Positions 30,513 to 47,604 of a stretch of 64,000 nucleotides of DNA are shown in pieces. The first letter of the stretch is position 1, and each line of letters begins with the position of its first letter. This DNA comes from Candidatus Krumholzibacteriia bacterium. GTDB taxonomy: Bacteria > Krumholzibacteriota > Krumholzibacteriia > LZORAL124-64-63. The stretch spans positions 5,235 to 69,234 of the forward strand of contig JANTGJ010000002.1 of the NCBI GenBank assembly GCA_024762975.1, in the 5' to 3' direction. The notes under the pieces are model-generated. The model did not search any database, was not told the origin of the DNA, and saw only the letters and a program-made list of their open reading frames with translations. The position numbers were made by a program, and so were the translations under genes.

Positions 30513-31967
30513 ATGAGTGCAACCGACAGACCCCGCATCCTGGTGGGTCCGTTCCTGGAACCACAGTGGTCGGAGTACATGGGGCAGGCCTTTGACGATT
30601 TCGACACGCTGACTTTCGGCGCCTGGGAGGGAAGCGACCTGCGCACGGGGCTGAATCCGGTCCTGAACGATATCCTGGCCGTGCTGCCGGAGGGATGGAC
30701 TCCGGATCTCTTCGTACTGTGGCGTCCGGAATACGGTACCATTCCGCGCGGTCTCGAGGACGCTCCGTTTCCCACCTCGGCCTGGATCAGTGACTGGTAT
30801 CTCGCGTTTTCCGATTGCCTCGAGGCCGCCTGGAGAGTCGATACGCTGGTCACCGGCACGCGCGGCGAGCGCATCTACCGGGCCGCCGGTTTCGACCACG
30901 TGATCGCCCTGCCCATGCTGGGGTACGATCCACGATTGGACGGACAATTCGGCCTGCCGCACGCCGAGCGCGATATCGATGTCTACTGCGGCAGCAATCC
31001 GAACTGGAAGGTCCACGCCGAGCGGGCGCGAGTGCACGAACGCATGCGCCAGTTGCCGGATTCCGTGAATCTGATCGAGGGCGGCTTCGTCGATCGTGAG
31101 GAGTTCAATCGTCGGATGGGGCGGGCGAGGATTTTCGTCAACCAGACGGTGATCGGCGAGATCAACATGAAGGTCTACGAGGCCACGGCGTCGGGCACCT
31201 GTCTCTTCGTCGAAGACACCAATCTGGATATACGCGACTACCTGACGGACGGCGAGTCGGTGGTACTCTTCAATCGCGACAATATCAACGGGAAGTTGCT
31301 GTACTATCTCGAGCACGAGGACGAGCGGGCTCGCATTGCCGATGCCGGTCGCGAACGGATGAAACCGTACACCTACCGCACCAATGCCCGGACCATCGTC
31401 GAACGGCTACTGGCCCGGGGCCTGCGCTCCGGGGGGAGGCCCATCGTCGAACTGTCGGCTCGTGAGCGTCTGGAAGGACTGGCGGGTTTCGGGCTGCGCC
31501 ACAACGGGGGCGACTGGCTGGCGCTGCTGCCGCTTTGCGCCGAACTGGGCCCCGAACCTCGCCCACAGCTGATTCTGGCCTGCGCCCAGTACGCCGCACG
31601 GGTGCTGACCCGGGCGCCCGGGGTGTGGAGCGACCCACAGATACTTCGGGCCTTCGCGGCGGTGGCGAACGCCGCGCCCCATTACCTGCCGGCCTGGTAT
31701 TGTTGGACGAAGATCGCCGTCGAACACCTGGAGCCGGGGACCGGTGCCCGGGCACTCGAGCGCACCGAGGAAATGCTGCGGAGCGGTTGCCCTGTTCCCT
31801 TCTCGATGGCCGATCCCTACTTGGCCATGGAGCAGAATCGCCGTTTCATCTTCGAGCGGACGGCCTGGGAGGCCTTGGAAGCGGGCAAGTCCATCGACGA
31901 TGCGCTGCGGCCCCTCCTGCTCGAGGAATTGGTCGAGGTCCGCGCCAAATTGACGGCCCGTTCCTGA
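30513..31967 (+). CDS. CgeB-like glycosyltransferase (DUF3880 / GT1-like C-terminal domain).
   Basis: IDVYCGSNPNWKVHAERARVHERM...RIFVNQTVIGEINMKVYEATASGTCLFVED...LYYLEHEDERARIADAGRERM...HTYRTNA matches the CgeB family. About 150-aa extra C-terminal region. Confidence 0.75.
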   Translation: MSATDRPRILVGPFLEPQWSEYMGQAFDDFDTLTFGAWEGSDLRTGLNPVLNDILAVLPEGWTPDLFVLWRPEYGTIPRGLEDAPFPTSAWISDWYLAFSDCLEAAWRVDTLVTGTRGERIYRAAGFDHVIALPMLGYDPRLDGQFGLPHAERDIDVYCGSNPNWKVHAERARVHERMRQLPDSVNLIEGGFVDREEFNRRMGRARIFVNQTVIGEINMKVYEATASGTCLFVEDTNLDIRDYLTDGESVVLFNRDNINGKLLYYLEHEDERARIADAGRERMKPYTYRTNARTIVERLLARGLRSGGRPIVELSARERLEGLAGFGLRHNGGDWLALLPLCAELGPEPRPQLILACAQYAARVLTRAPGVWSDPQILRAFAAVANAAPHYLPAWYCWTKIAVEHLEPGTGARALERTEEMLRSGCPVPFSMADPYLAMEQNRRFIFERTAWEALEAGKSIDDALRPLLLEELVEVRAKLTARS

Positions 31968-33317: not shown

Positions 33318-34439
33318 CTAGAGCATCCCGGCCTTGCGCGCCAGAGCCTCGCATTTGTCGGCAATCAAGGCGTACTCCGGCAGGCTGGGAATCAACTCGG
33401 TCACACGCCGGCCGACCGGAATCGCCTCGACGATACGTCGCGTGTTGACCAGGATCTGGCATTCGATTTTCAGCAACAGCGGATCCTCGCCGAAGCGGCG
33501 CTTGGCTTCGTTCAGCACCGGTTCGGCGGCGGAATAGTCCTTCTGCGAAAGCATCAACTGTAGCCGGCCGGTCCAGCCGAAGAGCCAATCCGGATTCTCG
33601 CGCGTGGTGCGCTGCATTACCTGCAGGGCCTCGTCGATGCGATCGTCCTCGGCATACAGTTTGGCCAGCATCACGCGCACGCGGCTGAGGATCGGGCCAT
33701 CGCCCTGGTGGGCGTGCAACTCCTCCAACCAGGGAATCGACTCGCGCGCCCGGCCCTCCTGGATCAGGATGTACGCCAACTCGAGTCGCGCTTTCCAATC
33801 GTCCGGATTCTCCTGTACCTTGCGCCGAACCAGGCGCCCGTAGAACTCGTTGCGTGCGTCATTGTGTTCCTTGCTGCCCACATAGCCGTAGTGATGAACC
33901 GGGACCTCGAGCAGGGCGGCGGTCAGGCCCAGACGTTCCATCGAGGGCGCGAGATCCTCGTGCACGCGGCCTTCCCAGTAGAGGCCGTCGCGGACCGGGA
34001 GCAGGCGGTACTGCTCGGCGGCGAAAAAGCCGGTCTGTCCGCGTTCCTCGTCCGGATAGCGACCGCTGACCGGTTGCCACTCCTGATGCTCCTGCCGGTT
34101 GTAGTAGTTCCACTGGGCACAGAGGTAGCAGTGGTCGCGTGACCCGAGGGTCGCTTCGCGAAGCGTGGAAAAATCAGAACGCGCGATGCGCTCGTCGATA
34201 TCCAGGACGAAGGCCCAGTCGCCCGTCGCCGCGGCAAGCGACGCGTTGCGCGCGGCAGCGAAATCGTCATCCCACTCGTGGTGCAGTACACGAGCGCCGG
34301 CGGCCTCGGCCAAGGCGACCGTGTCGTCCGTGGAGCCGGTATCCACGAGCACCATCTCGTCGAAGAGGTCGCGGTGGTGTTCAAGAAAGGCCGTGATTTC
34401 GGCGGCCTCGTTTTTGGCGATCGCGATCAGGGACAGCAT
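33318..34439 (-). CDS. Family-2 glycosyltransferase with C-terminal TPR repeats.
   Basis: LSLIAIAKNEAAEITAFLEH...VLVDTGSTDDT...VLDIDERI are GT2 DxD-type motifs. The C-terminal half is TPR-like helical repeats. Confidence 0.85.
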   Translation of the reverse strand: MLSLIAIAKNEAAEITAFLEHHRDLFDEMVLVDTGSTDDTVALAEAAGARVLHHEWDDDFAAARNASLAAATGDWAFVLDIDERIARSDFSTLREATLGSRDHCYLCAQWNYYNRQEHQEWQPVSGRYPDEERGQTGFFAAEQYRLLPVRDGLYWEGRVHEDLAPSMERLGLTAALLEVPVHHYGYVGSKEHNDARNEFYGRLVRRKVQENPDDWKARLELAYILIQEGRARESIPWLEELHAHQGDGPILSRVRVMLAKLYAEDDRIDEALQVMQRTTRENPDWLFGWTGRLQLMLSQKDYSAAEPVLNEAKRRFGEDPLLLKIECQILVNTRRIVEAIPVGRRVTELIPSLPEYALIADKCEALARKAGML

Positions 34440-34629: not shown

Positions 34630-36441
34630 TTACCGCAGCAGGACACGGAATTTGAGCGTAAATCGGGGCGCTCCGGACGGTCCGAGGGCGGGAAACACAC
34701 CCCCCGGAGTGATCCGCAGGTGCGTGATCTGCTTGTCGCAGCCGTTCGCGTCGATGCGGGGACGATAGCGCCAATTTCGACCGTTGCGTGAGAACTGCAG
34801 GTCATCCCGGCGATTGCGCAGGCCCCGGTAGTCGAAGACCAGTCCGCTCGTCGGGGAGCCGTCCTGGAACAGGACCGGTCCCGATCCGGCTCCGTCGATA
34901 TCCTCGACGCAGAGCGAAGTGCCCACCGGAACGGGGACGGTCAGCACTACCGATCCATCATCCACATCACTGGGCAACTGGTTCGATACTTCCACCGTGT
35001 AGAGGAGATGGGCGCCGGGGATGGCCTTGGGATTCGAGGTGCCGTTGACCGGGTCGTCCTGGACCTCGGTAAACTGTACGGCCACGACTTCGGCGGGCAG
35101 ACCGTCGACGGTGAAGGTGTGGGAGTCGCTGTTGTCGGCGAGGTCGTAGTCGAACTCCACGCCGGACACGGTGCCGGACACCGTTTGGCTTCCGGCGGCG
35201 GAGAACGTCGGTCGTACCTGGAGGTCAAAGCCCTGCGTCGATCCGGCCGGCAGGGACGACGGCGCGCGGAAAACGAAGGTCGGCGCGGAGGAGGAGTCCA
35301 TCAACCAGCCGTCACTGGCACCCAGCACGGTCAGGTCGGACGAAAGTGTAACCGTCACCTGCACCGGACCGGATTCTTCACTGGGACCGGCATTGTTCAC
35401 ATCGACGCGGATCAACCCATCGCGATCGACGGCCAGGGTCGAGGGAGTCGAGAGGCGTAGCGACAGGTTGGCGCTGGGCGCGTTCGAAACCGCGATCACC
35501 TCGGCCGACAGCAGGACCAGGTCCTGCCCCGAGCGGTACACCGCCGTTGCGCTCGAATCCCCCGCGTGCAGCAGCGGGCCAATATCGTAGACGTCGAAAT
35601 CCACGCCCCATTCGGATGTGCTGCCCAGCACATTGATCGTCGAGTTGAACTGGTTGTTGGCCGGATTGTAGCCGTCGGACAACGCCGTGCCATTGAAGAG
35701 CATGCTTTCGCTGAATCCGCCCAGCGCGTTCGAGTTCTCCGAATCGCCCTCCCAGGTCAAGTGGCTGGCCTGACCACTGATGCCGCTGGCGGCGATGCGG
35801 AAATTGTTCATCGTCAAGGAAATCTCGCCGCCGCGGTAGTATTCGAACCCGTCATAGATGTTTACGATCTGGTTGGGTCCGCCCGGCTGGTTGTAGACGA
35901 CGATCAATGACCAGCCGGCCACAACGGCCTGCACGGGGCAGTGCGGCCAGTCGGTATTGACGCTCAGTCCGGAGAAGGTGTAGACGCCGTTGCCCTTGGC
36001 CGCGACCTGGGCGGTCACGTCCTCGAAGCCGGAAAAGAAATCGTAGTCGTTGCCGTTGTAGCTGAAAGTCTCGGTAAAGATCCGGTCGGCCTGTACTGCC
36101 TGACCATCGAAGACGACATCCTGGTCCGGCATCGTCTGCGTCGACCACCCGTTATTCGAGTAGGAGCCGGCCCAGTACAGATAGGCGGCCTCAACCGAAG
36201 CTCCGGCCGGGATGCCGCTCAGCAGACCGCTGTCCGAACCGCCGACGGCGCAGGCATCGCCGGAATTCGAGGACGTGCGCAAGGTGCCGCCGGTGCCTAC
36301 GTAGTCGACCGCCCCGGCGTGGGTGCGGTACAGCGATAGCGGCGTGCCCGCCCGAGCGGTTTCGGCGCCGACCAGCAACGCGATCGCCAACAGTGCGGCA
36401 ACCGGGATCCAAGGGAGTCTGTGATCAATGCAGCATCGCAC
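34630..36441 (-). CDS. Secreted protein (603 aa): N-terminal beta-rich domain of about 300 aa of unclear family, one DUF11-type repeat, and a C-terminal tail.
   Basis: GTG start at 36441. Signal peptide ending ETARA. DUF11 block NGTSNPKAIPGAHLLYTVEVSNQ... shared with the 355-aa protein. Ends FTLKFRVLLR. Confidence 0.8.
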   Translation of the reverse strand: MRCCIDHRLPWIPVAALLAIALLVGAETARAGTPLSLYRTHAGAVDYVGTGGTLRTSSNSGDACAVGGSDSGLLSGIPAGASVEAAYLYWAGSYSNNGWSTQTMPDQDVVFDGQAVQADRIFTETFSYNGNDYDFFSGFEDVTAQVAAKGNGVYTFSGLSVNTDWPHCPVQAVVAGWSLIVVYNQPGGPNQIVNIYDGFEYYRGGEISLTMNNFRIAASGISGQASHLTWEGDSENSNALGGFSESMLFNGTALSDGYNPANNQFNSTINVLGSTSEWGVDFDVYDIGPLLHAGDSSATAVYRSGQDLVLLSAEVIAVSNAPSANLSLRLSTPSTLAVDRDGLIRVDVNNAGPSEESGPVQVTVTLSSDLTVLGASDGWLMDSSSAPTFVFRAPSSLPAGSTQGFDLQVRPTFSAAGSQTVSGTVSGVEFDYDLADNSDSHTFTVDGLPAEVVAVQFTEVQDDPVNGTSNPKAIPGAHLLYTVEVSNQLPSDVDDGSVVLTVPVPVGTSLCVEDIDGAGSGPVLFQDGSPTSGLVFDYRGLRNRRDDLQFSRNGRNWRYRPRIDANGCDKQITHLRITPGGVFPALGPSGAPRFTLKFRVLLR

Positions 36442-39400
36442 GAGTCGACTCCTGGTTGAAACGAATGCGGAAGCGCAGGTAGGGTCCGTGCGCGGTGTAC
36501 TCGCCGGCCGTCAGATCGTGGTCGACGAAGCCGGCGAAGTTGTAGCCGAGGCTCAGCCAAACGTCCTCGAGCAGGCGGTACCCGCAACTTGCGCCGCTGT
36601 TCCACCTGCCGACCCCCGAGCCCCATCCGTGCAGCCAGTTTGCGTGCACGGCGGCATCCCATCGCCGACGGAAGAATGTGCGAGCCTCCAGCCCGGTGCG
36701 ATCGGTGAAGCTGTCGTAGCGGCGCCCGGAGAGGAACTCGCGCTGATAGCGGGCACCGTACATCCCCGAGATCTGCAGCCAACGGGAGTGCCTCCAGGTC
36801 AGATTCGCGTTCTGGACAATGCGCCAGTTTTCACCGGCAAACACCGCGTCACGAACATCCTGCGTGCGGAAGTTGAATTTCTGGAGCAACAACCAGGGTG
36901 ATTCCTGCGGCCGCCAGGCCCAGCCCAGCCCCAGATCCAGGTGCGTCTGGTGACCGCCGTCGCGACGGTCGTTGCCCTGCAGTTTCAGGCTGGCCAGCAG
37001 TCCCGTCGCCGCGGTGGGCTCGACGAACAAGCCGCCGTACAGGCCCCACTTGTCTTCGTCCCACGAGTTGCGGTACTCGGCGCGCTGATCCCACAGCCAG
37101 CTCTTGCCGCGCCAGGCGGCACCCAGACTGACGGCGGTGAAATCCTCGGACCCGCTCGATGCGGTGGTAGCGAAGGGCGAAGTCGCCGCCGAATCGGAGG
37201 CGGCGCGGCTTCCGTCCGACCACCCGTGATCCAAACCACCGTCGACGCTCCAGGCCTCGTTGATGCGCCAGGTCTGCTTCATTCCCAGATTCGAGAATAC
37301 GCGGCGTCCGGCCTCGGTCATTTCGTCCTGCCGCGAAGTCAGGAACTGGGCCCCGGTCCAGGGTGCGGTCTTCATGCCCAGGCGCAGGCTGCTGCGATCG
37401 GCCGGTTGGCCGTGGACCCATTCCTGGGTGGCGAACAGGGTCTGGTTGCGCAACGCCTCGAATTCCACGCCCAGGGTCGAGCGGGTCGGGAAATCCGGGT
37501 TGTTGTCGTTCGATCCCAACGACTGCTCGCGGCCCGCCTGAAGGCGCAGGCGATGCTGCCAAAGCTGCAACGAAGTCCCCGTCACGAGCTGATTCGAGAT
37601 GTTCTCGTGTCCGCCGGCCAGGGAATCACCCGCGTGACGCAGTCCCAGATTGGTGCGCAGGCGACGGCTCTGCCAGCTCCATTTCATCTCGGCCACACGG
37701 CGTTCGGCTGCTGCGACGAGATTGTCCAGGCGGTACAGGACGACGTCGGTGCGCATGCTCTGGCGCAGGCGCCAGCTACCCTCGGCGCCCAGTTTGCGCG
37801 TGCCGACCTGTCCGCCGCGGATCTGGCCCAGACCGAAGCCCGATTCCAGTTCCCGGAAGTAGGCGCGACCCTGCAGCGTACCGGCGTGTCGCGAGAGTTC
37901 GGACCAGAAGGCCTGGTGTTCGCCCTCCGCATCGGTGTTGGTCCAGGCCGCCTCGGTCTTCCAGCGCGTGGCCGGACCGAGGTCCCAGCGCAGATCCAGA
38001 CCCAGCAGATCGCCGCCGCCGGGACCGGTGTCGCCTTCCCGGATCCCGGTCGCACCGGCCTCGACGGGTCCGCCGCGTGGGCGCACGTGGGCGCGGCCAC
38101 CTACCGAGACGGCGGACTGGTTCTCGTCCCAGGTCTCGTACTCGGCCACGATCCAGCGCGGGTTCAGATCCTGGTCCTGACTGGTGACCGGTTCCTTGAA
38201 ATGGATCGTACCGGCGGCGTAGTCGATCTCATAGTCGATGAATCGTGTCAACGTGCGCTGCGAGTGGACGATTTCGCTGCGGAATCGATCGCGTACCTCG
38301 AGAGTGATCTTCTCCGAATGCGTGACGATCTGCTGTCTGGACAGGCGGTACAGACCGGAAGTGCCGTCACCGCGGATCTCGTCGCGCAGGTAGGCATGGT
38401 GGGTGCGACTGGCAAAGGCGGTGTAGCCCAAATTGCCGCGTTGCAGTTCCGATTTTACGCCGGTCAGGGTGCGCTGGTACCGCGAGAGTTCCGTCACGGT
38501 CAGGCCGGTCTGGAAATCGCCGAACAGGGCATAGAACTGCTCGCGCTCGAGTTTTACGTACAGTTTCTCGGCGCTGGGAGCCTCCTGGCCTTCGGTTACC
38601 GCGTCGGCGTAGACGGTGTAGTAGGCGTCCGGGTCGATGGCGGCGAAAAGGTTCGTTTCAGGCCCCGCGCCCGGTTTGCGACTGTCGTAGGCCATCGTCG
38701 CCAACCAGGTGCCTTTCAGGCGGCCCTTGGCGAAAAAGGCGAGGCGGTTCTCACGATAGAAGCCGTCGTCGCCGTCGGCGGCGCGGAAGGTTTCGAGATT
38801 CCCCGAAACCTGCGCGTATCCCGCGGTGCCTGCGGCCAGACCGACCAGGACCCAGTCGCGATCCTGCGGCTTCAGCCAGACGCGCATCTCTTCCTCGTGA
38901 TCCAGCAGTGGCAGTGTAACGAGAGCCTCGCCGGCCTGGGAAGTGGGCTCGAGTCGCAATCGCGCGATGCCGCCGGCTTCGACCAGGTAGCTCGGCCGTC
39001 GGTCCTGCAATCCCGATAGTGAGCGACGATCCTCGGCATTGCGATCGCGCAGGGCCAGAAAGGGTGCGCCCACGGAGTACTGGCCGACCACGCCCTCACG
39101 TGCGGGGTATCCCTGCGCATCCTTCAATCGTACGGCGATCTCAGGCGGTGTCTTGCCGTCGGCGACCAGGCGCGACAGCGCGGGTACCCACTCGGCATAG
39201 ACGGGAGGACCGGAATAGTGGATCGACCGCTGCTCGCGTTCGACGACCCCACCGGTGCCATCGTACCAGGTGATCTCGAGGGCATTGTCGCCCTCCACCA
39301 GATCGACACCGTTCCAACGGCTCAGGGCCGTGTTCCCATTCGGCGAGACTTCCGTGCCCGCCCAGGCGAGCGGTCCGACCGCCGCTCCGTTCAATCGCAC

Positions 39401-42274
39401 CACTACCTGATCGCCGGGGAGGTGCAGCACGGCGATTTTCAATGTGGGCAACGGAGGCAGATGGCCTTCGGTCGGCCAAAGAATCGAGCGCCCGGGCGAG
39501 GCTGCAGCGAGCCAGGCTGCATCGAATACCGGCGCGGCGGGAGGTAGGTCATCTGTCGAGTTTTCAGCCGAGGGCCAATCTTCTCCCGGTCGCAGACCCT
39601 TCAATTCGAGTTGCTGCCGGTGATGATCCCGGACCGGCTCTTCCGGCAGGACGTGGAGTGTGCGCTCGGACATCACCTGTAGCGACACGCGCCGATTGCG
39701 GGCGCGGCCCTCGACCGTCGAGTTGTCGGCGATCGGTTGCGACGGGCCCATTCCCTGCACGGACATCTGTCCGGGGTCAAGCCCCAGGTGCGCTGCCAGG
39801 TAGTCGCCGACCGCATGCGCACGGGCCAACGAGAGTACCCGGTTGTCCGTGTAGACCGGGTGGGCACCGGGACGAATGCGCTGGCTGTCCGAGTGTCCGG
39901 TGACCTGGATGCTGCTGATTTCCAGGCCCTCGAGTCTTGTCGCCAGCGAATCGATTCGCGCCCGGTCCTCCGCCGACAACTCGGCGCTCAGGGACGGAAA
40001 CTGCGGGTGCAGTACCATCTCGGGTTGCCGGATGTGCCGCGTTTCGGGCACCAGATTGACGATCGTGCGCGCCGGCTCCGTCCGACAATTTCTTTGTTGC
40101 GGGGAGTCGAATACAGCCAACGCCTGCAGTTCGAGACTGGACCGCGTCGAAGTCGAATCGGCGCGGGCTCCGAAATCCAGCCGCTGCGCCCAATCACCCT
40201 GTACGTCTCCCAAACGCCAAACCAGTACGCTGCCGTGATTCTCCGGATCCGCAATGGGCAGCGTGTCCAGGCGGGAGGTCCCGGGCTCGTATCGCACGCC
40301 GTCCGGAAGCAGCGCCGTCAACCGGACGTTGCGCAGGGGCACTCCGGCACCGCCCAGCTCGATTCGGGCCGTCAATCGATCGCGCTCGAGGGTCGTGGCC
40401 AGATCCAATGCGATGTTGCCCTCGGTGGGCGGGCGCAGGTGGACCTCGAAATCCGTCCGCCACACGGTCCCGCCCTGCAGATCCAGTATCCGGGCATAGG
40501 GGTGTTCGGCCTTGTGCGGGTCCGGTGAGCGGGCGCCGGCGGCGTAGCGCGCAGGCAGTGTGGCCAGATCCATCTGGACGACATGGGCTCCCGGGAGGAT
40601 GCCGGACAGGTGGTAGCGGCCCTGGGCGTCCGTCACGGCGAAAGCGCCCGATTCAAGGAGGATTCGTACGCCGGCGATCCCCTGCGTAGCAAGCGTGTCG
40701 GTGCCGGCAGTGGACAACGAATCACCCGGGCACCTCGACGTCGTGACCCTGCCCAGGAGGGTACAGGTCTCGCCGAAGAGATCCGGTACGACCCGAACGC
40801 GTGCGCTGGCGGTCATCGATCGTATCTGTGCCCAGCGCGCCCAGGCCCGATTGACGGCTTCACCCGCGCGTGCGCCCGGTACGACCTCGGTCACGTAGCG
40901 GACCTGGATCTCGTCGCCCGCTGCCAGCTCCGGAACGGTCCATCCCAGAGTGCGGCCGTCAGGCGATACGGAGGGGTCGGCAAAGGCTTCCTCGCCGCGC
41001 CGTGTGGATCCGGATCGATAGCGGAATCCGGCAGGCAGCTCGTCGTAGAGCGTCAGGTCTTCGGCGTCATCGTCACTGCGATTCTGAACCGTGACCAGGT
41101 ACTCGACGAAGTCACCGATGGCCGCCGATGGCTTGGCCGCCGCCTTGGTCACGAAGAGATCGGTGTTCAGCACGTCCAGCGGCACGTCGACCCTCAGCGG
41201 CTCTTCGCCCGAATACAGGAATGGTGCCCCATAGCTGGCTTCGGCATGCAGCTGATAGGGAGAGCCGGGTACATCCCGCAGGGCATCGATCGCCAGCCGG
41301 GATGGAGCCAGATATCCCGGCGGAGCCTCGACCTGCAGGATGTATTCGCCCGGCTGCACTCGTGGGAAGCGGTAGGTGCCGTCGTCGAGATCGTACGAGA
41401 TTCCGCCGTCGTCCAGCAATGAACGGCCGGTCGTGATACTGGCGGGAAAGGCACTCACGCCATCATCGCCCAGGACGCGGGCCGGCAGTCCGGTGGTGGA
41501 TTCCAGCAGCGTGATCCGAGCACCGTCGATGGGTTCGCCGCTGCGCGAGTCGAAGACACGGCACAGTGGATCGAAAACGCCGGTCGCCTCGGCCCGGTCC
41601 GTGGCATCCTGGACATCGACATATTCGGCGCGGATCGGTGCGCCGGGTTCGACGGAGAAAAGACCGTCGCGCGTTTGCATGGCCGTGTTGCGGTCGGACT
41701 GCAGGTATCCGGTGAAGATCCCGCTGGCGGGTTCCGTTTCCAGCAATCTCAACAATTCCCGGTCGCCGTTCGCAGCCTGGAAGACCTCGACCAACACCGT
41801 TTCCCGCACCCCGGCGTCCCGGTTCTGGTCGGCGTCCTCCACACTCAGGAAAACGGCTTCGCCCTGGCGAAAACGATCGCCGGCAACCAACGGTACGGGC
41901 GTTCCCAGATCGATCGGATCGTCGCCCTCGCGGGGGGGCGGCAAGGCCAGCCAGGGACCCTCGGGAAGGCCGCTGGCACTGTAGTCGGTCGGTGCGACGG
42001 GGAAGGCGACGGCGCCGCGGGTGGGGGCCGCGATACGCATCAATTCGAGAACCGCATTCGTGGCCGGCGAGGCGACGGTCAGGGCCACTGTATTGGATAC
42101 GGCGACCCGATCGTCACGGTCACCGGCCGCGAAACTCACTTGGGCGGTATTGACGATGCTGGCTCCGGGCGTTGTCGGCGCAACAACCTGACCGACCGCA
42201 GGGCCTCCCACGAACAGGAGACCCAACAGGAGGATCGGTGTTCCTACCGCAATGCCGAAGCGAGTCGTCAAATC
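36425..42274 (-). CDS. Giant (about 1949 aa) outer-membrane protein with N-terminal DUF11 and Cna-B/carboxypeptidase-regulatory-like surface domains, a central OmpA-like peptidoglycan-binding domain, and a C-terminal predicted beta-barrel of about 900 aa.
   Basis: Likely TTG start at 42272-42274 (GGGCAGG RBS) giving signal peptide MTTRFGIAVGTPILLLGLLFVGGPAVGQ; the longest ORF starts at GTG 42373. DUF11: FVTKAAAKPSAAIGDFVEYLVTVQNRSDDDAEDLTLYDELPAGF. OmpA-like: ISSIQVTGHSDSQRI...NRVLSLARAHAVGDYL...NRRVSLQV. C-terminus ...LRFRIRF is typical of OM beta-barrels. Confidence 0.85.
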   Translation of the reverse strand, partial: DLTTRFGIAVGTPILLLGLLFVGGPAVGQVVAPTTPGASIVNTAQVSFAAGDRDDRVAVSNTVALTVASPATNAVLELMRIAAPTRGAVAFPVAPTDYSASGLPEGPWLALPPPREGDDPIDLGTPVPLVAGDRFRQGEAVFLSVEDADQNRDAGVRETVLVEVFQAANGDRELLRLLETEPASGIFTGYLQSDRNTAMQTRDGLFSVEPGAPIRAEYVDVQDATDRAEATGVFDPLCRVFDSRSGEPIDGARITLLESTTGLPARVLGDDGVSAFPASITTGRSLLDDGGISYDLDDGTYRFPRVQPGEYILQVEAPPGYLAPSRLAIDALRDVPGSPYQLHAEASYGAPFLYSGEEPLRVDVPLDVLNTDLFVTKAAAKPSAAIGDFVEYLVTVQNRSDDDAEDLTLYDELPAGFRYRSGSTRRGEEAFADPSVSPDGRTLGWTVPELAAGDEIQVRYVTEVVPGARAGEAVNRAWARWAQIRSMTASARVRVVPDLFGETCTLLGRVTTSRCPGDSLSTAGTDTLATQGIAGVRILLESGAFAVTDAQGRYHLSGILPGAHVVQMDLATLPARYAAGARSPDPHKAEHPYARILDLQGGTVWRTDFEVHLRPPTEGNIALDLATTLERDRLTARIELGGAGVPLRNVRLTALLPDGVRYEPGTSRLDTLPIADPENHGSVLVWRLGDVQGDWAQRLDFGARADSTSTRSSLELQALAVFDSPQQRNCRTEPARTIVNLVPETRHIRQPEMVLHPQFPSLSAELSAEDRARIDSLATRLEGLEISSIQVTGHSDSQRIRPGAHPVYTDNRVLSLARAHAVGDYLAAHLGLDPGQMSVQGMGPSQPIADNSTVEGRARNRRVSLQVMSERTLHVLPEEPVRDHHRQQLELKGLRPGEDWPSAENSTDDLPPAAPVFDAAWLAAASPGRSILWPTEGHLPPLPTLKIAVLHLPGDQVVVRLNGAAVGPLAWAGTEVSPNGNTALSRWNGVDLVEGDNALEITWYDGTGGVVEREQRSIHYSGPPVYAEWVPALSRLVADGKTPPEIAVRLKDAQGYPAREGVVGQYSVGAPFLALRDRNAEDRRSLSGLQDRRPSYLVEAGGIARLRLEPTSQAGEALVTLPLLDHEEEMRVWLKPQDRDWVLVGLAAGTAGYAQVSGNLETFRAADGDDGFYRENRLAFFAKGRLKGTWLATMAYDSRKPGAGPETNLFAAIDPDAYYTVYADAVTEGQEAPSAEKLYVKLEREQFYALFGDFQTGLTVTELSRYQRTLTGVKSELQRGNLGYTAFASRTHHAYLRDEIRGDGTSGLYRLSRQQIVTHSEKITLEVRDRFRSEIVHSQRTLTRFIDYEIDYAAGTIHFKEPVTSQDQDLNPRWIVAEYETWDENQSAVSVGGRAHVRPRGGPVEAGATGIREGDTGPGGGDLLGLDLRWDLGPATRWKTEAAWTNTDAEGEHQAFWSELSRHAGTLQGRAYFRELESGFGLGQIRGGQVGTRKLGAEGSWRLRQSMRTDVVLYRLDNLVAAAERRVAEMKWSWQSRRLRTNLGLRHAGDSLAGGHENISNQLVTGTSLQLWQHRLRLQAGREQSLGSNDNNPDFPTRSTLGVEFEALRNQTLFATQEWVHGQPADRSSLRLGMKTAPWTGAQFLTSRQDEMTEAGRRVFSNLGMKQTWRINEAWSVDGGLDHGWSDGSRAASDSAATSPFATTASSGSEDFTAVSLGAAWRGKSWLWDQRAEYRNSWDEDKWGLYGGLFVEPTAATGLLASLKLQGNDRRDGGHQTHLDLGLGWAWRPQESPWLLLQKFNFRTQDVRDAVFAGENWRIVQNANLTWRHSRWLQISGMYGARYQREFLSGRRYDSFTDRTGLEARTFFRRRWDAAVHANWLHGWGSGVGRWNSGASCGYRLLEDVWLSLGYNFAGFVDHDLTAGEYTAHGPYLRFRIRFNQESTRAMLH

Positions 42275-42329
42275 ATACCTGCCCAGATCGGAGCCGGTCC
42301 GTCGGGACCGGCTCCGAGTGTTGTCGTTG

Positions 42330-43397
42330 CTACTGGATGAGAACCTGGAAATCGGCCTGCACCGAACCGGCACCGGCCACGGTGCCGAAGTTCACGCGCA
42401 CGTGCGTGACATTCGGGTCGCTGCCGTCGCCGCTGTCGGCCGGGATGTAGGTCCAGGTCGTGCCGCCATCGTTCGAGAACGTGACGCCGGCACCCAGCGG
42501 GTTGGAAATGACCGAGCCGACCACAAAGGCGGTGTTGGCCGGGATCGCATCCGCGACGACCACGTTGTCGGCATCGGCGCCGCCCGTGTTGGCCACGGTC
42601 AGGTTGTAGCCCATGATCGCGCCGGGGATGGCCTTCGGGTTGACCAGGCCGTTGAACGGATCGCTGGCCACGGCCGAGCTTTTCGTCACGGTCAGGGCAG
42701 CGGAGACGACCAGGAACTGGTCCACGGCCGAGAAGCGTCCGTCCTGCGCGGCGTCGGCAGTACCGGCACCATCGGCGAACACAATCTGGACGGTGTTCGG
42801 ATCGTCGGCGATCGCGGCGTCGTCCGCGGCGATGGCTGCGCCCGCAGCGCCCACGCCGCCGCCGGCGGCCGTCTGCACGACCAGGTTGTAGTTGGCGACC
42901 TCGGCATCGGCCGCGGCCAGGGGAATGTCACCGACCACGAAGACCGTGATCGACGTGTCCATCGCCAGTTCGTCCACGTAGGTCTGTGTGTCCGTGGCCG
43001 GCTCGTAGGTCGAGTTGCCGTTGGCGTCGACATAGATGGCAACGCCCGTGGCGTCGAAGTCGTCGGCGGCGTCGGCCAGGCTGCTCAGCGCGTAATCCTG
43101 CACCGTGTTACCGGTGTTGGTAACCGACCAGGTCATGTACATGCCCGTGGCTCCGGGGACTACGTTGACCGAGCCGCCGTCCAGGACCGCTACGGTCAGA
43201 TCGACGCGGTTGTCGACCACGAAGGTGGCCGTGTTACTGGCGATCTGGGTCTGTGCCACGGAGCCGACCGTGAAGTCGACGGTGGCGGTGTTGCCGATGG
43301 TCGTTCCCGAGGGCGTGCCGGTGGCCAGCGCCAGCTGAGCCGAGCCCGCGATCAGGATCGTCATCATCAGAGCGATCAGTTTTGCGTTCCGTTGCAT
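42330..43397 (-). CDS. Secreted DUF11-repeat protein (355 aa).
   Basis: AGGAGG RBS. Signal peptide MQRNAKLIALMMTILIAGSAQLALA. C-terminal DUF11: LTVTKSSAVASDPFNGLVNPKAIPGAIMGYNLTVANTGGADADNVVVADAIP...ends FQVLIQ. Confidence 0.8.
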   Translation of the reverse strand: MQRNAKLIALMMTILIAGSAQLALATGTPSGTTIGNTATVDFTVGSVAQTQIASNTATFVVDNRVDLTVAVLDGGSVNVVPGATGMYMTWSVTNTGNTVQDYALSSLADAADDFDATGVAIYVDANGNSTYEPATDTQTYVDELAMDTSITVFVVGDIPLAAADAEVANYNLVVQTAAGGGVGAAGAAIAADDAAIADDPNTVQIVFADGAGTADAAQDGRFSAVDQFLVVSAALTVTKSSAVASDPFNGLVNPKAIPGAIMGYNLTVANTGGADADNVVVADAIPANTAFVVGSVISNPLGAGVTFSNDGGTTWTYIPADSGDGSDPNVTHVRVNFGTVAGAGSVQADFQVLIQ

Positions 43398-43424: not shown

Positions 43425-43916
43425 CTATTGCAGCAGGGCGGTGTAAGCCACTGATCCGGTCGCGCCGGGCTGCAGTGGTTCGTCGAACGTCCAGCGGATG
43501 TGCGTGCAGTCCGAAGCCAGGGCGGGACGGTCGCTCCCGTTCGTGGCCGGTACACGCAGGGCGGCCAGCTCCCCGAAGCTGCGGCCGTTGTCGATCGAAT
43601 AGGTGACCCGGGCTCCGGCCGGCGGGGTATCTGCCGATTGGAACTCCATGTGTTTCGGGATGGGATTGGTGATGAAGACGTCCTCAGCCGGTTCCTGACC
43701 GTAGTTGCGGTACTGCAGCGTGAAGATCACCTCATCACCGGGAATGACCTTCGTCGCCAGCAGGCGCCGGGTAACCTGTGTCCCGTCGGCCAGCGTTTCG
43801 TGGGTCTCGATCTCGGCGGTCGAGCTCAGCTCGATCGTGCCGCCATCGAGGCTGTCATCGGCCGCCGCAAGGGCCGGCAGCGCGAGAATCAGTACTGTCC
43901 AGATCAGTTGCTTCAT
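43425..43916 (-). CDS. Secreted single-DUF11-domain protein (163 aa).
   Basis: AGGAGG RBS. ATG at 43914-43916. Signal peptide MKQLIWTVLILALPALAAA. ...GDEVIFTLQYRNYGQEPAEDVFITNPIP...ends YTALLQ. Confidence 0.75.
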   Translation of the reverse strand: MKQLIWTVLILALPALAAADDSLDGGTIELSSTAEIETHETLADGTQVTRRLLATKVIPGDEVIFTLQYRNYGQEPAEDVFITNPIPKHMEFQSADTPPAGARVTYSIDNGRSFGELAALRVPATNGSDRPALASDCTHIRWTFDEPLQPGATGSVAYTALLQ

Positions 43917-43978: not shown

Positions 43979-44974
43979 TTATTGAATCCTTACCTGGAAG
44001 GTGATGGTCTGGGGGGACGCCCCGGCAGGTACGTCGCCGAGCGCGACGAACACGGTACTCGTGCTGGTCTCGTCGATGTCGCCCGGGTCGGCGTCCTTGG
44101 TGTCGGTCAGGATGGATCCGTTCAGCGTGAGCGAGGCCGGGATGTAGGTGGTGTGATCGGGGATGGGGTCGGACAGGACGAGGCTGCGCGCAGTGCCCGT
44201 CCCGGTCACCGTCATGCGCAGGGTATAGGTGATGATCGCGCCCGAGACCGGCAGGTCGCCGCCATCGGGGTTCCGCACCGTAGCCGACTTCTCCAGGTCG
44301 ACGGAGACGGTGACGACCTCGTAGGCGCCGGTGACTTCACCGAATCCGCCGCTGCGGCCGATTACGGCGTCAGAACCTCCGTCGCCCGCGCCGTGGATCA
44401 CGGTGCCGGGGGCGCCATAGCCCAGGCTCGATCCGACCGCCAGTTTGCATGAACCCTGTGCTCCGGCCGGGGCCTCGACCGGCATATCGCAGACCAGGAA
44501 CAGGACCAGCGACTGGTCGGCGACGAGTTCGGGATCGTTCACGCCCTGAACATAGAGCTCGTCGCGGCTGGGGTCGAAGCGGCCGTCCGTATCGGTATCG
44601 AGATAGATGCGCAGCGTTTCCGGGTCGAAGTCGTCACCGGCCAATGCGGTCAGGCCGGTCAGGTGGAAAATCTGGCTGCCGTTGCCGGTGTTCAGCAGGC
44701 GGAAGGTCAGGGGCTCGTCGAGATCGCCGACGAAGACGGGCAGCTCGGCCGCGTCCTGCCATTCCACGACGAAGTCGAGCACCTCGTCGACCTGAACGGT
44801 CGACCAGTTGCTTGGCGTCGTGAAATCAACATCGCTTTGCGTGTACGTCATCACTGCCTGACTGATGAGCTCGGTTCCAGCCGGAGTGCCGAGCGCAAAA
44901 GCAGTGGTGCAGTTGAGGCAAAGCATGAGGGTCAAGGCCAGCAGCCTTGCCGGGCGTCTCATGGCAACCAACAT
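43979..44974 (-). CDS. Secreted DUF11-repeat protein (about 330 aa).
   Basis: Signal peptide M(LVAM)RRPARLLALTLMLCLNCTTAFA. Start at 44974 or 44962. C-terminal ...AIITYTLRMTVTGTGTARSLVLSDPIP...ends FQVRIQ. Confidence 0.75.
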   Translation of the reverse strand: MLVAMRRPARLLALTLMLCLNCTTAFALGTPAGTELISQAVMTYTQSDVDFTTPSNWSTVQVDEVLDFVVEWQDAAELPVFVGDLDEPLTFRLLNTGNGSQIFHLTGLTALAGDDFDPETLRIYLDTDTDGRFDPSRDELYVQGVNDPELVADQSLVLFLVCDMPVEAPAGAQGSCKLAVGSSLGYGAPGTVIHGAGDGGSDAVIGRSGGFGEVTGAYEVVTVSVDLEKSATVRNPDGGDLPVSGAIITYTLRMTVTGTGTARSLVLSDPIPDHTTYIPASLTLNGSILTDTKDADPGDIDETSTSTVFVALGDVPAGASPQTITFQVRIQ

Positions 44975-45334
44975 TCTTCTCGCAGGACCGTCCGGGGGAA
45001 GCAGGGCGAGTTCCTCTCCAGTCGCGCTGTGACTGATTCGCTGTCGAATCAAGCGCGATCCGGGCGGCTGTCGTGTCGCGACAGGTCGTCCTTGACCTGC
45101 CTCGTTGTTCCTTGTCAGGTATCGGAATGGCGCGTCGTGGAGTTGATTGAGGCGAATCTGTGATCTTTGGTAAGGCGAAGCCTCGGGGCGGGTAAGGTTC
45201 GCCTTAGCCGAAAGCGAGTGAAGTCACGCCGGGTCGGATCTGGACAAAAGGACCGGAACACGGTTCAATGGCGGCGGTATCAATTCGTCAGGGCTTCCGA
45301 AGGGGGAGCCGTTTCTCCTACCGGGAGTCATGCC

Positions 45335-45946
45335 ATGAAGACCACTACGAAATGGATCCTGCCGGGCGCAGCCCTGTTGCTGCTGATCCCCGCCATTGCA
45401 TCCGCCATCGTCGAAAAGAAGAGCGGTACCGAATATCCCGATACGATCGAGGTCGGTGAAGTGACCGGCAGCGTAAAATTGGTTGCCACGGGCGTCGGCC
45501 TGCGCGAGAAGACCTTCCTGAAGGTGGATGTCTACACGATCGTTTCGTACATGCCCGAGGGGACCGAACTGGGTGAGGATGCGGGTTTGGGCCTGGTGAT
45601 GCTGGACGGGCCGAAGCGTCTGCAGATGGACCTGCGACGCGGCTTCTCGCGCGAAAAGCTGATCAACGCCTTCATCGAGGGGATTGATGCGAACTACGAC
45701 GACACTTCGGCGTTCGATGCGGACCTGGAGACGTTCCAGAACTATTTCACGCGGGATGCGCAGGACCAGGATCGAATCATCTTCGACTACTGTCCCGAGC
45801 GGGGTCTGACCACCGAATTGAACGGTGAAACCGTTGGCACCATCGAGAACAAGAGTTTCGCACAGGCGCTGTGGACCGTGTGGTTCGGTAAGAAACCCGC
45901 GAACAAGGATCTCAAGAAGGCCCTGCTGTCGGAAATCGAAAGCTGA
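45335..45946 (+). CDS. Chalcone-isomerase-like periplasmic protein.
   Basis: Signal peptide MKTTTKWILPGAALLLLIPAIASA. GVGLREKTFLKVDVYTIVSY is typical of the bacterial chalcone-isomerase-like fold. Confidence 0.75.
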   Translation: MKTTTKWILPGAALLLLIPAIASAIVEKKSGTEYPDTIEVGEVTGSVKLVATGVGLREKTFLKVDVYTIVSYMPEGTELGEDAGLGLVMLDGPKRLQMDLRRGFSREKLINAFIEGIDANYDDTSAFDADLETFQNYFTRDAQDQDRIIFDYCPERGLTTELNGETVGTIENKSFAQALWTVWFGKKPANKDLKKALLSEIES

Positions 45947-45950
45947 TTCC

Positions 45951-46451
45951 GTGACCGACACTTCCGGACTTCCACGGAGCGATGCGCGCCAGGCAATGGA
46001 ACTGGCGCGCACCGCTCAGGCCCGCTTCGAAACACTCGAGGCCGCGGCCGCGAAACACGGCCTGGACCTCGAACGCATCGCAGCCTGCGGTGAGGGCGTT
46101 CTGGCGGGCATCCACGCCGGTCCGCATCAGGAAGACGTGATGTGGATCCTGGAGATTGCGACGGCGATGCTTACGACCGTGATGGCGGTCTCGGGCGAGC
46201 CGGTACCGGTATCCCAACAGGTCGACCCGGCGTCCTTCGGTATGGCTGTGCTGCGCGATCTGCAAACCGCCGCAGCAGAAACAGGCCGGGTCTGGTCGAG
46301 CCTCGAAGCGGCTGCGGCGGAGAGCCTCAAGCAGGCCGATACGGATCGGTACACCCACCTGGAAACGTTTTGGGCCCTGAGTCGCGCCACCGCCTCGTGC
46401 GAGCTGGGCTGGGCGCGCTCGCTGGCCGAAGAGGGCGAATCCGACCTCTGA
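45951..46451 (+). CDS. Hypothetical all-alpha protein.
   Basis: In-frame GTG at 45951 or ATG at 45996 (MELARTAQARF...). Ala-rich helical. Between two confidently called genes with good codon bias. Confidence 0.5.
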   Translation: MTDTSGLPRSDARQAMELARTAQARFETLEAAAAKHGLDLERIAACGEGVLAGIHAGPHQEDVMWILEIATAMLTTVMAVSGEPVPVSQQVDPASFGMAVLRDLQTAAAETGRVWSSLEAAAAESLKQADTDRYTHLETFWALSRATASCELGWARSLAEEGESDL

Positions 46452-46467
46452 GCCGGGAGAACATCCC

Positions 46468-47604
46468 ATGAAAATTATCGTACTGGGAGCCGGCCTGGTC
46501 GGCGGTCCGATGGCCATCGATCTGGCCGCGGACGATCGCTTCGATGTCACCGTTGCCGACATCGACCCGCTGGCGTTGCGCAACCTGACGACGCGCGCAG
46601 CGATCACCCCCCGGGAGGCCGACCTTTCGCAGCCGCAGAACGTCACAAAGCTGGTGGCCGACTACGACTACGTGGTTTCGGCGGTACCTGGATTTCTGGG
46701 GTTCCGCACTCTCGAAGCGATTCTGCACGCCGGCAAGAATGTCGTCGACATCGCGTTCTTCCCCGAAGATCCGTTCGAGCTGGATTCCCTGGCCCGGAAA
46801 CAGGGTGTGACCGCGATCATGGATTGCGGAGTCTTCCCGGGCATGGGGAGCGCGCTCGTGGGACGTGCGGCGCGCCGGTTGGACGAAGTCAACGATCTGC
46901 TGGTCTACGTCGGCGGCCTGCCGGTCGTGCGCACCTGGCCCTGGGAGTACAAGGCCGTATTTTCGCCGATCGACGTGATCGAGGAATACACGCGCCCGGC
47001 GCGTTATGTCGAGAACGGTACGCTGGTCACCCGCGCGGCGCTCTCCGATCCCGAACTGATCGAGTTTCCCCAGGTCGGTACTCTGGAGGCCTTCAACACC
47101 GATGGCCTGCGCTCGCTGCTGACGACCCTGGACGCGCCGAACATGAAAGAAAAGACGCTGCGTTATCCCGGTCACATCCAGAGAATGGCCGTGCTGCGCG
47201 AGTGCGGGTTTTTCAATGAGGAAGAGATCGAGGTGCGAGGCCACCGGATACGACCCCTCGATGTGACCGCCGAGCTGCTGTTCCCGATGTGGAAGCTGGA
47301 AAAGGGCGAAAACGAATTTACGCTGCTGCAGATCCACATCGCCGGAGTGCAGGATGGCAGGCCGACACGCTACCGCTACGACATGCTGGATTTCTACGAT
47401 GCTCAAAGGGACATCACGAGTATGGCGCGCACGACCGGCTATACCGCGACCATGGCCTTGCGCATGCTGGTCGAGGGGAAGTACACGAAGACGGGGATCT
47501 CGCCGCCGGAGTACCTGGGTCGCGTGCCGGGCTGCTGCGCCTACCTGCTGGAAGGATTGGCGGAGCGGGGCATCGAGTATCGCGAGACAATCGACCAGGA
47601 CTGA
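46468..47604 (+). CDS. Saccharopine-dehydrogenase-family NAD(P)-binding oxidoreductase (LysDH or carboxynorspermidine-dehydrogenase-like).
   Basis: MKIIVLGAGLVGGPMAIDLA Rossmann motif plus saccharopine-DH C-terminal domain. GGGAGA RBS. Confidence 0.9.
   Translation: MKIIVLGAGLVGGPMAIDLAADDRFDVTVADIDPLALRNLTTRAAITPREADLSQPQNVTKLVADYDYVVSAVPGFLGFRTLEAILHAGKNVVDIAFFPEDPFELDSLARKQGVTAIMDCGVFPGMGSALVGRAARRLDEVNDLLVYVGGLPVVRTWPWEYKAVFSPIDVIEEYTRPARYVENGTLVTRAALSDPELIEFPQVGTLEAFNTDGLRSLLTTLDAPNMKEKTLRYPGHIQRMAVLRECGFFNEEEIEVRGHRIRPLDVTAELLFPMWKLEKGENEFTLLQIHIAGVQDGRPTRYRYDMLDFYDAQRDITSMARTTGYTATMALRMLVEGKYTKTGISPPEYLGRVPGCCAYLLEGLAERGIEYRETIDQD

Follow-up and report, generated by a model that had tools for sequence, protein, structure and literature searches.

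Background

The known systems closest to the locus described here are donor-strand fibres assembled at an outer-membrane barrel. In chaperone-usher systems, an operon encodes small secreted beta-sandwich subunits together with one large barrel; the subunits combine an incomplete C-terminal fold with an N-terminal extension; tip proteins (FimH, PapG) join a variable N-terminal domain to a pilin domain that only accepts strands; a terminator (PapH) only donates; and a plug domain is present in the usher barrel. Here we compare with these systems a gene for a giant protein of 1948 amino acids (aa), and its neighbours, in a window of 64,000 nucleotides (nt) from a Candidatus Krumholzibacteriia bacterium (GenBank assembly GCA_024762975.1, contig JANTGJ010000002.1, positions 5,235 to 69,234 of the forward strand; coordinates below are positions in this window). 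The giant protein ends in a predicted outer-membrane barrel, and its most likely role is to build and hold a surface fibre made of the small neighbouring DUF11 proteins.

Parts of this architecture have counterparts in other surface systems. Sortase pili (SpaA, RrgB and EbpB) are built from CnaA/CnaB-type domains with Lys-Asn(-Asp/Glu) isopeptide triads, and the fibre is tied to the peptidoglycan through a basal subunit. The SpyTag/SpyCatcher principle, a split CnaB domain, is to supply the Asn-bearing strand separately from the Lys-bearing domain. In autotransporters of types Va and Ve a single polypeptide holds a barrel and a string of immunoglobulin (Ig)-like domains, with a peptidoglycan-binding domain (a periplasmic LysM) in type Ve, and the type Va chain runs from the outside through the pore to the periplasmic side and on into the first barrel strand. 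SprA/Sov of the type IX secretion system (36 strands), which passes folded substrates, and SlpA of Deinococcus (30 strands, N-terminal SLH), which couples a giant barrel to the cell wall, belong to the same barrel size class as the protein studied here. The order of a DUF11/CLIPPER stalk followed by an OmpA-like anchor in a Gram-negative host is found in the fibrillar adhesin B9T28_05395 of Acinetobacter silvestris, which has been drawn with that anchor at its C-terminus (PMC12617251; PDB 9IFR).

The giant family itself has neither a name nor a published study in the literature that we searched, which held nothing on the family, its operon or any barrel-linked DUF11 protein; what turned up for DUF11 together with ushers, for TIGR01451 or for donor strands dealt with DUF1102, DUF1134 and the grappling hooks of Chloroflexota.

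Truncated DUF11 domains and N-terminal hairpins in the operon

The giant gene belongs to a minus-strand cluster of secreted DUF11 proteins, given here in the order of transcription.

43979..44974, minus strand: protein A, 331 aa; signal peptide, N-terminal hairpin, middle domain, C-terminal DUF11 truncated after strand 7
43425..43916, minus strand: protein B, 163 aa; signal peptide and a single truncated DUF11, with no hairpin match and no catalytic acid
42330..43397, minus strand: protein C, 355 aa, a paralogue of A; hairpin with N36, middle domain, truncated DUF11
42288..42317, minus strand: perfect GC-rich stem-loop of 13 bp, after the stop of gene C and before the TTG of the giant gene (-28.7 kcal/mol, z -3.0)
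36425..42271, minus strand: giant gene, 1948 aa plus stop, TTG start at 42271; database protein P0001 is 100% identical over 1948 aa
34630..36441, minus strand: protein E, 603 aa; signal peptide, DUF3344, complete DUF11, C-like truncated domain at the extreme C-terminus

When A, B and C are aligned with a 128-position hidden Markov model (HMM) of the giant's complete DUF11 domain, their C-terminal domains account for positions ~5-94 and end with the last residue of the protein; the coverage of the Pfam DUF11 model likewise ends at HMM positions 64-81 of 114. The missing part is the final hairpin, strands 8-9, a region that in CLIPPER domains carries the isopeptide Asn (PMC12617251). Although the strand bearing this partner Asn is absent, every one of the 34 A proteins (K229 and D269 in the window) and of the 53 C proteins (K239 and D283) keeps the Lys of strand 1 and the catalytic Asp/Glu. 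A and C share ~30% identity, B corresponds to their C-terminal domain only, and the C-terminal domain of E resembles that of C.

A ~40-residue motif, GTxAGTxIxNxAxVxY...SNxVxxxV, immediately follows the signal peptide in A, C and the giant, and these hairpins are mutually homologous in hhalign comparisons from which the signal peptides were excluded (P 96-98.7%, E 5e-9 to 2e-16). An HMM of the hairpin detects 32/33 A proteins, 49/52 C proteins and 58/85 giant open reading frames (ORFs), none of 59 B proteins and one of 13 tip-like proteins; most of the giants that it misses are ORFs cut at a locus edge, and the single tip-like match is an artefact of ORF calling. The hairpin Asn is present in 50/53 C proteins, most giants and 23/34 A proteins. 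No lysine occurs in aa 1-375 of the giant, so its hairpin Asn lacks a nearby partner in cis, and the giant's own DUF11 domain is complete. The tip-like proteins encoded downstream (601-1659 aa) have diverse N-terminal regions and a truncated C-like domain at the extreme C-terminus.

Read from these sequences, the products of the operon fall into three classes: acceptor-only (E-type proteins and B), donor-plus-acceptor (A and C) and donor-only (the giant). Such a division follows the logic of a donor-strand-complemented fibre, with a tip adhesin, a shaft or adaptor, and a terminator, and it suggests a usher-like fibre that needs no chaperone.

No hairpin is present in E. The beginning of its gene shares 17 nt with the end of the giant gene, an arrangement suggestive of translational coupling. 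The N-terminal part of E matches DUF3344 (E 1e-8), and it also matches the fimbrial protein BcfA in NCBIfam at E 0.048, below any threshold. Orthologues of E lie downstream of the giant gene in a metagenomic locus (L003) and in one from Krumholzibacteriota (L023). We propose E as the tip adhesin.

Start of the giant gene

The uninterrupted frame on the minus strand runs over 36425..42373 and holds 1982 codons when counted from a GTG. An earlier note on this DNA, made from the letters alone, had set that GTG against a TTG placed at 42274 and found a proper signal peptide only with the TTG. This choice of start stands, with the coordinate shifted by three: codon 34, at 42274, is GAT, and the in-frame TTG lies at 42271. 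Initiation there gives a product of 1948 aa, the numbering used throughout, with the N-terminus MTTRFGIAVGTPILLLGLLFVGGPAVG up to the cleavage site and QVVAPTTPG after it; a short charged n-region, a hydrophobic core and a small-residue cleavage site can be read from it. Starting at the GTG would produce a 44-nt overlap with gene C, whose stop (TAG) is at 42330, and would also mean translation through the 13-bp stem-loop. The public protein database entry P0001 is exactly the 1948-aa form, the closest homologues begin at the equivalent position (P0003 with MNAPFGKTILRSLILLGLAWSAAPAGA followed by QTTPG), and N-termini across the family pass from a hydrophobic core to A-x-A and directly into a PGTxIxNxA motif. 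Because homologue starts and the family pattern agree, the TTG start and its signal peptide are supported, and the comparison offered no other start that would remove the peptide.

The stem-loop at 42288..42317 has no U-tract. Similar stems of different sequence occupy the same place in four other loci (L003, L082, L048 and L030), and in many other loci there is no gap at that place or one of under 25 nt. Intercistronic hairpins in fimbrial operons set subunit ratios, and by analogy the stem-loop between C and the giant gene may set the ratio of subunit to giant.

Domains of the giant protein

An AlphaFold2 model of aa 25-1224, built on a 54-sequence family alignment, reached a predicted local distance difference test score (pLDDT) of 85.8 and gave, from N- to C-terminus, the hairpin, D1, D2, DUF11, D4, D5, OmpA, a linker and two Ig-like domains. 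Together with the signal peptide and the barrel, the elements are as follows.

42191..42271, minus strand: Sec signal peptide, aa 1-27 (MTTR, hydrophobic core, cleavage between PAVG and Q); sequence reading and family pattern
42062..42178, minus strand: N-terminal hairpin motif, aa 32-70 (PTTPGASIVN41TAQVSF...VSNTVALTV); homologous to the mature N-termini of A and C, proposed donor strands
41549..42061, minus strand: D1, aa 71-241, beta-sandwich with no Pfam match and no lysine; AlphaFold2
41171..41518, minus strand: D2, aa 252-367, prealbumin/SpaA-like fold; weak Pfam SpaA match, AlphaFold2, Foldseek
40790..41161, minus strand: complete DUF11/CLIPPER domain, aa 371-494, with candidate isopeptide triad K376, D410, N474; PF01345
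40436..40765, minus strand: D4, aa 503-612, CnaB-like (CarboxypepD_reg / SdrD_B); Pfam/NCBIfam at ~aa 525-570, AlphaFold2
40010..40423, minus strand: D5, aa 617-754, second DUF11-like beta-sandwich; AlphaFold2 strands
39647..40000, minus strand: OmpA-like peptidoglycan-binding domain, aa 758-875 (GHSD795, LSLAR817A, NRRV); Pfam, NCBIfam, PDB
38684..39487, minus strand: two Ig-like domains and a hairpin, aa 929-1196; AlphaFold2
38117..38389, minus strand: most conserved segment of the family, aa 1295-1385, where invariant columns are concentrated
36455..38563, minus strand: C-terminal beta-barrel, aa 1237-1939, ending in YLRFRIRF and a short helix; AlphaFold2

The order reported in the earlier note, in which extracellular-type domains precede an OmpA domain and then the barrel, is borne out by the HMM matches and the model. 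What that note took for repeats over the N-terminal 750 aa are instead five different beta-sandwich domains, and its description did not include the two Ig-like domains between OmpA and the barrel. The N-terminal hairpin is modelled at pLDDT 61-72, against ~90 in the adjoining domains. D1 is the domain that is tandemly duplicated in long homologues, D5 is weakly similar to the C-terminal domains of A and C, and Foldseek matches of the stalk model include the pilins SpaA, SpaD and EbpB. The Ig-like pair is flanked by low-confidence linkers (aa 892-917 and 1205-1229), and the family profile also matches the Ig-like domains of GH2 proteins.

The complete DUF11 domain matches PF01345 over aa 371-477 with 58 bits against a cut-off of 24.6 (E 1.4e-15), and the family profile matches the CLIPPER crystal structure 9ifr at 2e-10. 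K376, D410 and N474 lie at the expected motifs LFVTK, LYDELP and AVNRAW, so that a Lys/Asp/Asn triad accompanies a match above the family cut-off and makes this domain a candidate for an isopeptide bond.

The OmpA-like segment had been singled out in the earlier note as the point on which the domain order hung, and it does match PF00691: aa 758-860 score 55.6 bits, with a cut-off of 27.2 (E 6.9e-15), and model positions 2-98 of 98 are aligned. It is also matched by at least 25 NCBIfam models of OmpA, MotB and TssL and by 57 PDB chains of the same three kinds, and domains of OmpA, MotB, TssL and YfiB are the only sequence matches of the giant to solved structures. GHSD795 and LSLAR817A align with GHTD and LSLARA of Acinetobacter baumannii OmpA (3td3), and NRRV is present; D271 and R286 are the residues with which A. 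baumannii OmpA binds the diaminopimelate of peptidoglycan. The segment is a genuine PF00691 member with the conserved Asp and Arg, and is predicted to bind peptidoglycan.

The C-terminal barrel

AlphaFold2 modelled aa 880-1948 with a pLDDT of 84.2 and a predicted template modelling (TM) score, pTM, of 0.77, and DSSP, from which we took the strand count, assigned ~36-40 long antiparallel strands over ~700 aa of this model. Foldseek against the PDB returned exclusively outer-membrane barrels (BtuB, Cir, SlpA, LptD, SprA, FimD and MtrB), with E-values near 1e-6 and TM-scores of 0.1-0.29, and the C-terminal 1,069 aa had no sequence match in Pfam, NCBIfam or the PDB. Because only the generic barrel fold is matched, and at low TM-scores, the outer-membrane-type barrel that we confidently predict is of a size and family without a representative among solved structures. 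Its composition is 11% aromatic residues and 11% Gly. At about three times the size of an autotransporter barrel, it is far larger than the earlier note implied.

The most conserved segment of the family is a small beta insert of ~90 residues after the first ~5 barrel strands (aa 1295-1385), with the motif GDGTSGLYRLSR...EVRDRFRSE...DYEIDY..GT..FKEPV...NP..IV.EYE. Profile searches with this insert against the PDB and Pfam gave nothing above noise; by its position, comparable to that of the usher plug, it is possibly a plug.

A widespread family with an optional OmpA cassette

A first search found 114 relatives of the giant, and an exhaustive search with the barrel alone found 3,049 representative clusters (50% identity, E <= 1e-3), 975 of them at E <= 1e-30. 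Nearly all barrel relatives are 1,700-2,400 aa long and carry the barrel at the C-terminus. When a pattern built from a 13-sequence alignment was searched in GTDB (one genome per species), relatives were encoded in 590 of the first 600 matches, so that the family reaches at least 590 species genomes. Among the hosts are Desulfuromonadales/Geobacteraceae (with the cultured Geomonas and Geomobilimonas luticola), Nitrospirota, Krumholzibacteriota, Lentisphaeria, Myxococcota, Woeseiaceae, Burkholderiales, Gallionella, Zetaproteobacteria and Steroidobacteraceae (among them Povalibacter uvarum DSM 26723). Among the matches listed, the closest relative is from Krumholzibacteriota (48% identity). The giants are a widespread family across many diderm phyla.

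The gene order A-B-C-giant, or a close variant of it, is found in ~50 of the 55 loci with a complete gene, in all of the phyla listed and with or without OmpA. BLAST mapping resolved two conserved halves (aa ~30-740 and ~900-1948), with the OmpA segment between them present in ~30 full-length homologues and cleanly missing from ~25 others. OmpA was present in 38 of the 55 loci and absent from 17, a ratio biased towards OmpA, since these loci are the nearest matches of the query. In this family the OmpA segment is an optional cassette.

Stalk length varies as well. Long homologues (2,300-3,000 aa) retain the hairpin at the very N-terminus, their stalks are extended by tandem D1-D2 duplications of up to five copies, and some homologues have two or three tandem OmpA domains. 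Four unusual variants (P0262, P0232, P0129 and P0227) between them show inserted cadherin domains (P0262), DUF7933 domains (P0232), D1-D2 copies and multiple OmpA domains, and in all four the hairpin is N-terminal.

Comparison with described barrel systems

The described barrel families compared here do not account for the giant. A canonical usher is excluded by the lack of any PF00577 or NCBIfam usher match (E <= 1), by ~36-40 strands as against 24 and by the lack of a PapD-like chaperone gene in the operon; FimD is only a generic barrel match (TM 0.15-0.2). The giant is not a classical type Va autotransporter, as there is no PF03797 match, the barrel spans ~700 aa, and OmpA and two Ig-like domains intervene; nor is it an inverse autotransporter of type Ve, as the barrel stands at the extreme C-terminus and no intimin/invasin family is matched. 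A TonB-dependent or SusC-type receptor was rejected too: only the CarboxypepD_reg-like domain matches, the plug (PF07715) and 22-strand barrel (PF00593) do not, and BtuB and Cir are generic fold matches (TM 0.12-0.26). The SprA/Sov translocon has no sequence match, with a Foldseek E-value of 2e-6 and TM-scores of 0.10-0.17.

The likeness to chaperone-usher systems is one of organisation. An operon of small secreted beta-sandwich subunits accompanies one large outer-membrane barrel with FimD among its fold matches, the subunits have an incomplete C-terminal fold and an N-terminal extension, the tip-like proteins pair a variable N-terminal region with an acceptor-only pilin domain, the giant would stand in the place of PapH as donor-only terminator, and a small conserved domain is inserted early in the barrel. 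The differences lie in the subunits, which are CnaA-like DUF11 domains minus two strands here and an Ig fold minus one strand there; in the terminator, which is here fused to the usher in a machine with its own peptidoglycan anchor; and in the conserved Lys/Asp pair of the acceptor domain, which suggests a covalent lock. With sortase pili the locus would share CnaA/CnaB-type domains, isopeptide triads and a basal tie to the peptidoglycan, whereas it has neither sortase nor LPXTG, its attachment to the wall through OmpA would be non-covalent, and its diderm hosts require an outer-membrane conduit. The separation of the Asn-carrying strand from the Lys-bearing domain recalls SpyTag/SpyCatcher, the intermolecular isopeptide bond being hypothetical here.

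Compared with autotransporters, the giant has an unrelated and about threefold larger barrel, an order that differs from type Ve, no helical or extended linker, and a conserved set of partner genes. SprA and SlpA are not related to it in sequence, match its fold only at TM 0.16-0.21, and differ from it in accessory domains and in partner genes. B9T28_05395 has the stalk followed by the OmpA-like anchor but ends there, with many tandem CLIPPER repeats and no barrel, and no partner pilins or truncated domains are described for it. By analogy, the giant system would most resemble in its working a chaperone-usher system to which the wall anchoring of Gram-positive isopeptide pili has been added.

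Proposed fibre system

We consider it probable that the locus encodes an assembly-and-anchor system for a fibre or adhesin, taking together the versions in which the giant's stalk is threaded through the barrel and in which it stays in the periplasm. Tentatively, and a little short of an even chance, we favour the version in which the giant would act as the conduit, the terminator and the wall anchor for a fibre of DUF11 pilins, with the stalk threaded through its barrel. Sec would export the giant, whose ~36-40-strand barrel would insert in the outer membrane with a lumen admitting folded beta-sandwich domains, and whose OmpA-like domain would bind peptidoglycan in the periplasm. A, C and variable downstream proteins such as E would be secreted subunits with a C-terminal DUF11/CLIPPER domain lacking its last two strands; the N-terminal hairpin of the next subunit would supply these in trans, and a Lys-Asn isopeptide bond may lock the join in A and C. 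E-type proteins, which would accept a hairpin but have none to give, would take the tip position, A and C would both give and accept, and the giant would only give, its hairpin plugging into the last subunit to terminate and anchor the fibre. Load would pass from the giant's mechanically robust CnaA/CnaB-type stalk to OmpA and on to the cell wall. The least certain step is the path of the chain, which would run from the outside through the lumen to OmpA in the periplasm, to the Ig-like domains at the barrel rim and into the first barrel strand. In this scheme we infer the complementation in trans, the isopeptide bond, the path through the barrel and the exposure at the surface; what the analysis shows is the domain map, the identity of OmpA, the barrel prediction, the size of the family and its synteny, the truncated DUF11 domains, the hairpin homology and the division into donors and acceptors.

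A still more specific claim is that the locus represents a new class of diderm pilus, free of sortase and chaperone, in which the two-strand hairpin enters the neighbour's truncated CLIPPER domain, a spontaneous intermolecular Lys-Asn isopeptide bond acts as a natural SpyTag/SpyCatcher lock, and the giant is usher, terminator, stalk and peptidoglycan anchor with its own stalk threaded. We regard this combination, taken whole, as distinctly doubtful.

Several observations weigh against the fibre reading or against individual steps in it. The identity of the hairpin with the missing DUF11 strands 8-9 is suggestive and not statistically secure: the giant hairpin aligns to DUF11 HMM positions 104-125 (strands 8-9) only weakly (hhalign E 0.005), the C hairpin aligns to DUF11 in a different register, a narrow HMM of strands 8-9 of the giant's own DUF11 does not detect the N-terminal hairpins, and Pfam does not recognise them in isolation. 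The hairpin of the window's own protein A has Ser in place of the Asn. B, with no detectable hairpin homology at its N-terminus by the hairpin HMM, has an unclear place in the fibre. A and C could close their own DUF11 domains in cis, as circular permutations. No chaperone-like domain was found among the giant's neighbours (DUF11, DUF3344 and glycosyltransferase proteins) or in five further loci (L001-L005), and by the Kyte-Doolittle scale, a moderately informative measure, clear hydrophobic alternation is seen in only 17 of 41 predicted barrel strands. Only ~12 residues separate D5 from OmpA, and the literature searched holds no experiments on any family member. Co-variation between the A hairpin residue and the B lysine showed no pattern.

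Topology of the stalk and rival explanations

The earlier note asked whether the N-terminal region is periplasmic or the polypeptide threads through its own barrel, and this remains the right question. The OmpA domain can only be periplasmic, and the chain has to enter the first barrel strand from the periplasmic side. A periplasmic module before that strand is topologically allowed in a threaded protein, because the type Va chain takes the same route, and from barrel geometry we estimate that 36-40 strands should admit folded beta-sandwich domains. The note's claim that neither topology is described holds only in part, as the order of stalk then OmpA had been drawn for the A. silvestris CLIPPER adhesin. 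Its premise that DUF11 and Cna-B-like domains are normally surface-exposed claimed too much. In SusC-type receptors, CarboxypepD_reg domains make up an N-terminal extension that lies in the periplasm, and the bacterial alpha-2-macroglobulins, which are strings of Ig-like domains, are periplasmic too.

The best-surviving rival keeps the same fibre and places the N-terminal 1,200 aa of the giant wholly in the periplasm, so that only A, B, C and E pass the barrel; the giant hairpin would then cap the base of the fibre where the barrel opens to the periplasm, and OmpA would hold the assembly to the wall. It has the simplest topology for an outer-membrane protein, with the barrel N-terminus and OmpA both periplasmic, as in ushers, secretins, LptD, BamA and the N-terminal extension of SusC; it agrees with the periplasmic CarboxypepD_reg domains of SusC-type receptors and with the Foldseek resemblance of the N-terminal model to periplasmic alpha-2-macroglobulins. 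The short D5-OmpA junction also suits it, the sole long flexible linkers of the giant lying after OmpA in the model. Against it, tandem duplication carries homologue stalks to at least 2,000 aa, which would be hard to fit in the periplasm, cadherin and isopeptide-type adhesin inserts in homologues are what surface stalks typically show, and a periplasmic role for load-bearing CnaA/CnaB domains is not obvious unless they carry tension from outside. We hold this version possible, on the unlikely side. Because differing stalk lengths and inserts of adhesin type characterise surface stalks and sit awkwardly in a periplasm, and because the published CLIPPER adhesin was drawn as adhesive domain, stalk and OmpA-like anchor, we lean modestly to the stalk, at least its distal part, being threaded through its own barrel.

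Without any fibre, the giant could be a peptidoglycan-tethered giant porin or envelope staple, similar in role to Deinococcus SlpA or to OmpA, with A, B and C as accessory envelope proteins that close in cis. SlpA (8ae1, 8agd) is among the top fold matches and likewise has an N-terminal wall-binding module followed by a huge barrel, two thirds of the members keep the OmpA domain, and cis complementation is compatible with the data. The TM-scores to SlpA are only ~0.2, however, and a third of the family lacks any wall-binding domain; this explanation also leaves unaccounted for the acceptor-only proteins, with their diverse N-termini and common truncated C-terminal domain, and a donor hairpin in the giant with neither acceptor nor lysine nearby. 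We judge it improbable.

Very improbable, in our view, is a self-contained autotransporter-like adhesin that exports its passenger through its own barrel beside unrelated neighbours: a passenger at the N-terminus and a barrel at the C-terminus make up the type Va layout, and homologue stalks vary in length, whereas no autotransporter barrel or linker family is matched in Pfam or NCBIfam, ~36-40 strands stand against 12, OmpA and Ig-like domains lie between stalk and barrel, A-B-C-giant synteny crosses phyla, and A and C share the hairpin motif. A fusion of adhesin, OmpA-protein and porin genes by frameshift or misassembly, to which the unusual gene length and ambiguous start might point, is practically negligible given a single uninterrupted frame and the same architecture and length (1,700-2,400 aa) in hundreds of independent genomes and metagenomes, including complete chromosomes.

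Surroundings of the operon

Directly downstream of E lies a fusion of a GT2 glycosyltransferase with TPR repeats (33318-34439, minus strand), and a GT1-type glycosyltransferase is encoded nearby (30513-31967, plus strand). L001, L002 and L005 likewise have glycosyltransferases a few kb downstream of the giant gene, and those of the window could serve fibre glycosylation or belong to an adjoining polysaccharide locus. The three loci named, which are Gammaproteobacteria-like and distant, share their wider surroundings, with PEPCK, phasin and PhaC upstream and a DEAD-box helicase, a TsaD-like gene and PhoBR downstream; the shared surroundings argue for vertical inheritance within that lineage and not for a mobile island.

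Upstream of A, two minus-strand ORFs (45224-46012 and 46327-47718) have Arg-rich, low-complexity-looking translations without a Pfam match and are probably not genes; plus-strand ORFs (45167-45946 and 46468-47604) overlap them. Beyond these, 47610-50069 (minus strand) encodes an 819-aa gingipain-like Peptidase_C25 protein (E 2e-49) with a propeptide, Ig-like domains and a C-terminal domain weakly matching Por_Secre_tail/FlgD_ig. This protein suggests a type IX secretion system and a host of the FCB group, which fits the Krumholzibacteriota locus L023 as closest genomic relative. Gingipains of Porphyromonas process type V pilins.

Implications

The barrel is the core of a family of ~3,000 clusters that has no name, and this core has no Pfam model. 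Because the family includes cultivable Geomonas, Geomobilimonas and Povalibacter, the topology is directly testable in cultured organisms, and a naturally split CLIPPER domain could serve in protein ligation. If the proposed reading is true, the barrel would be one of the largest single-chain barrels known, the system would add a pilus-assembly pathway to the short list of those in Gram-negative bacteria, and it would show how domains of the Gram-positive, isopeptide-stabilised type are put to use across an outer membrane.

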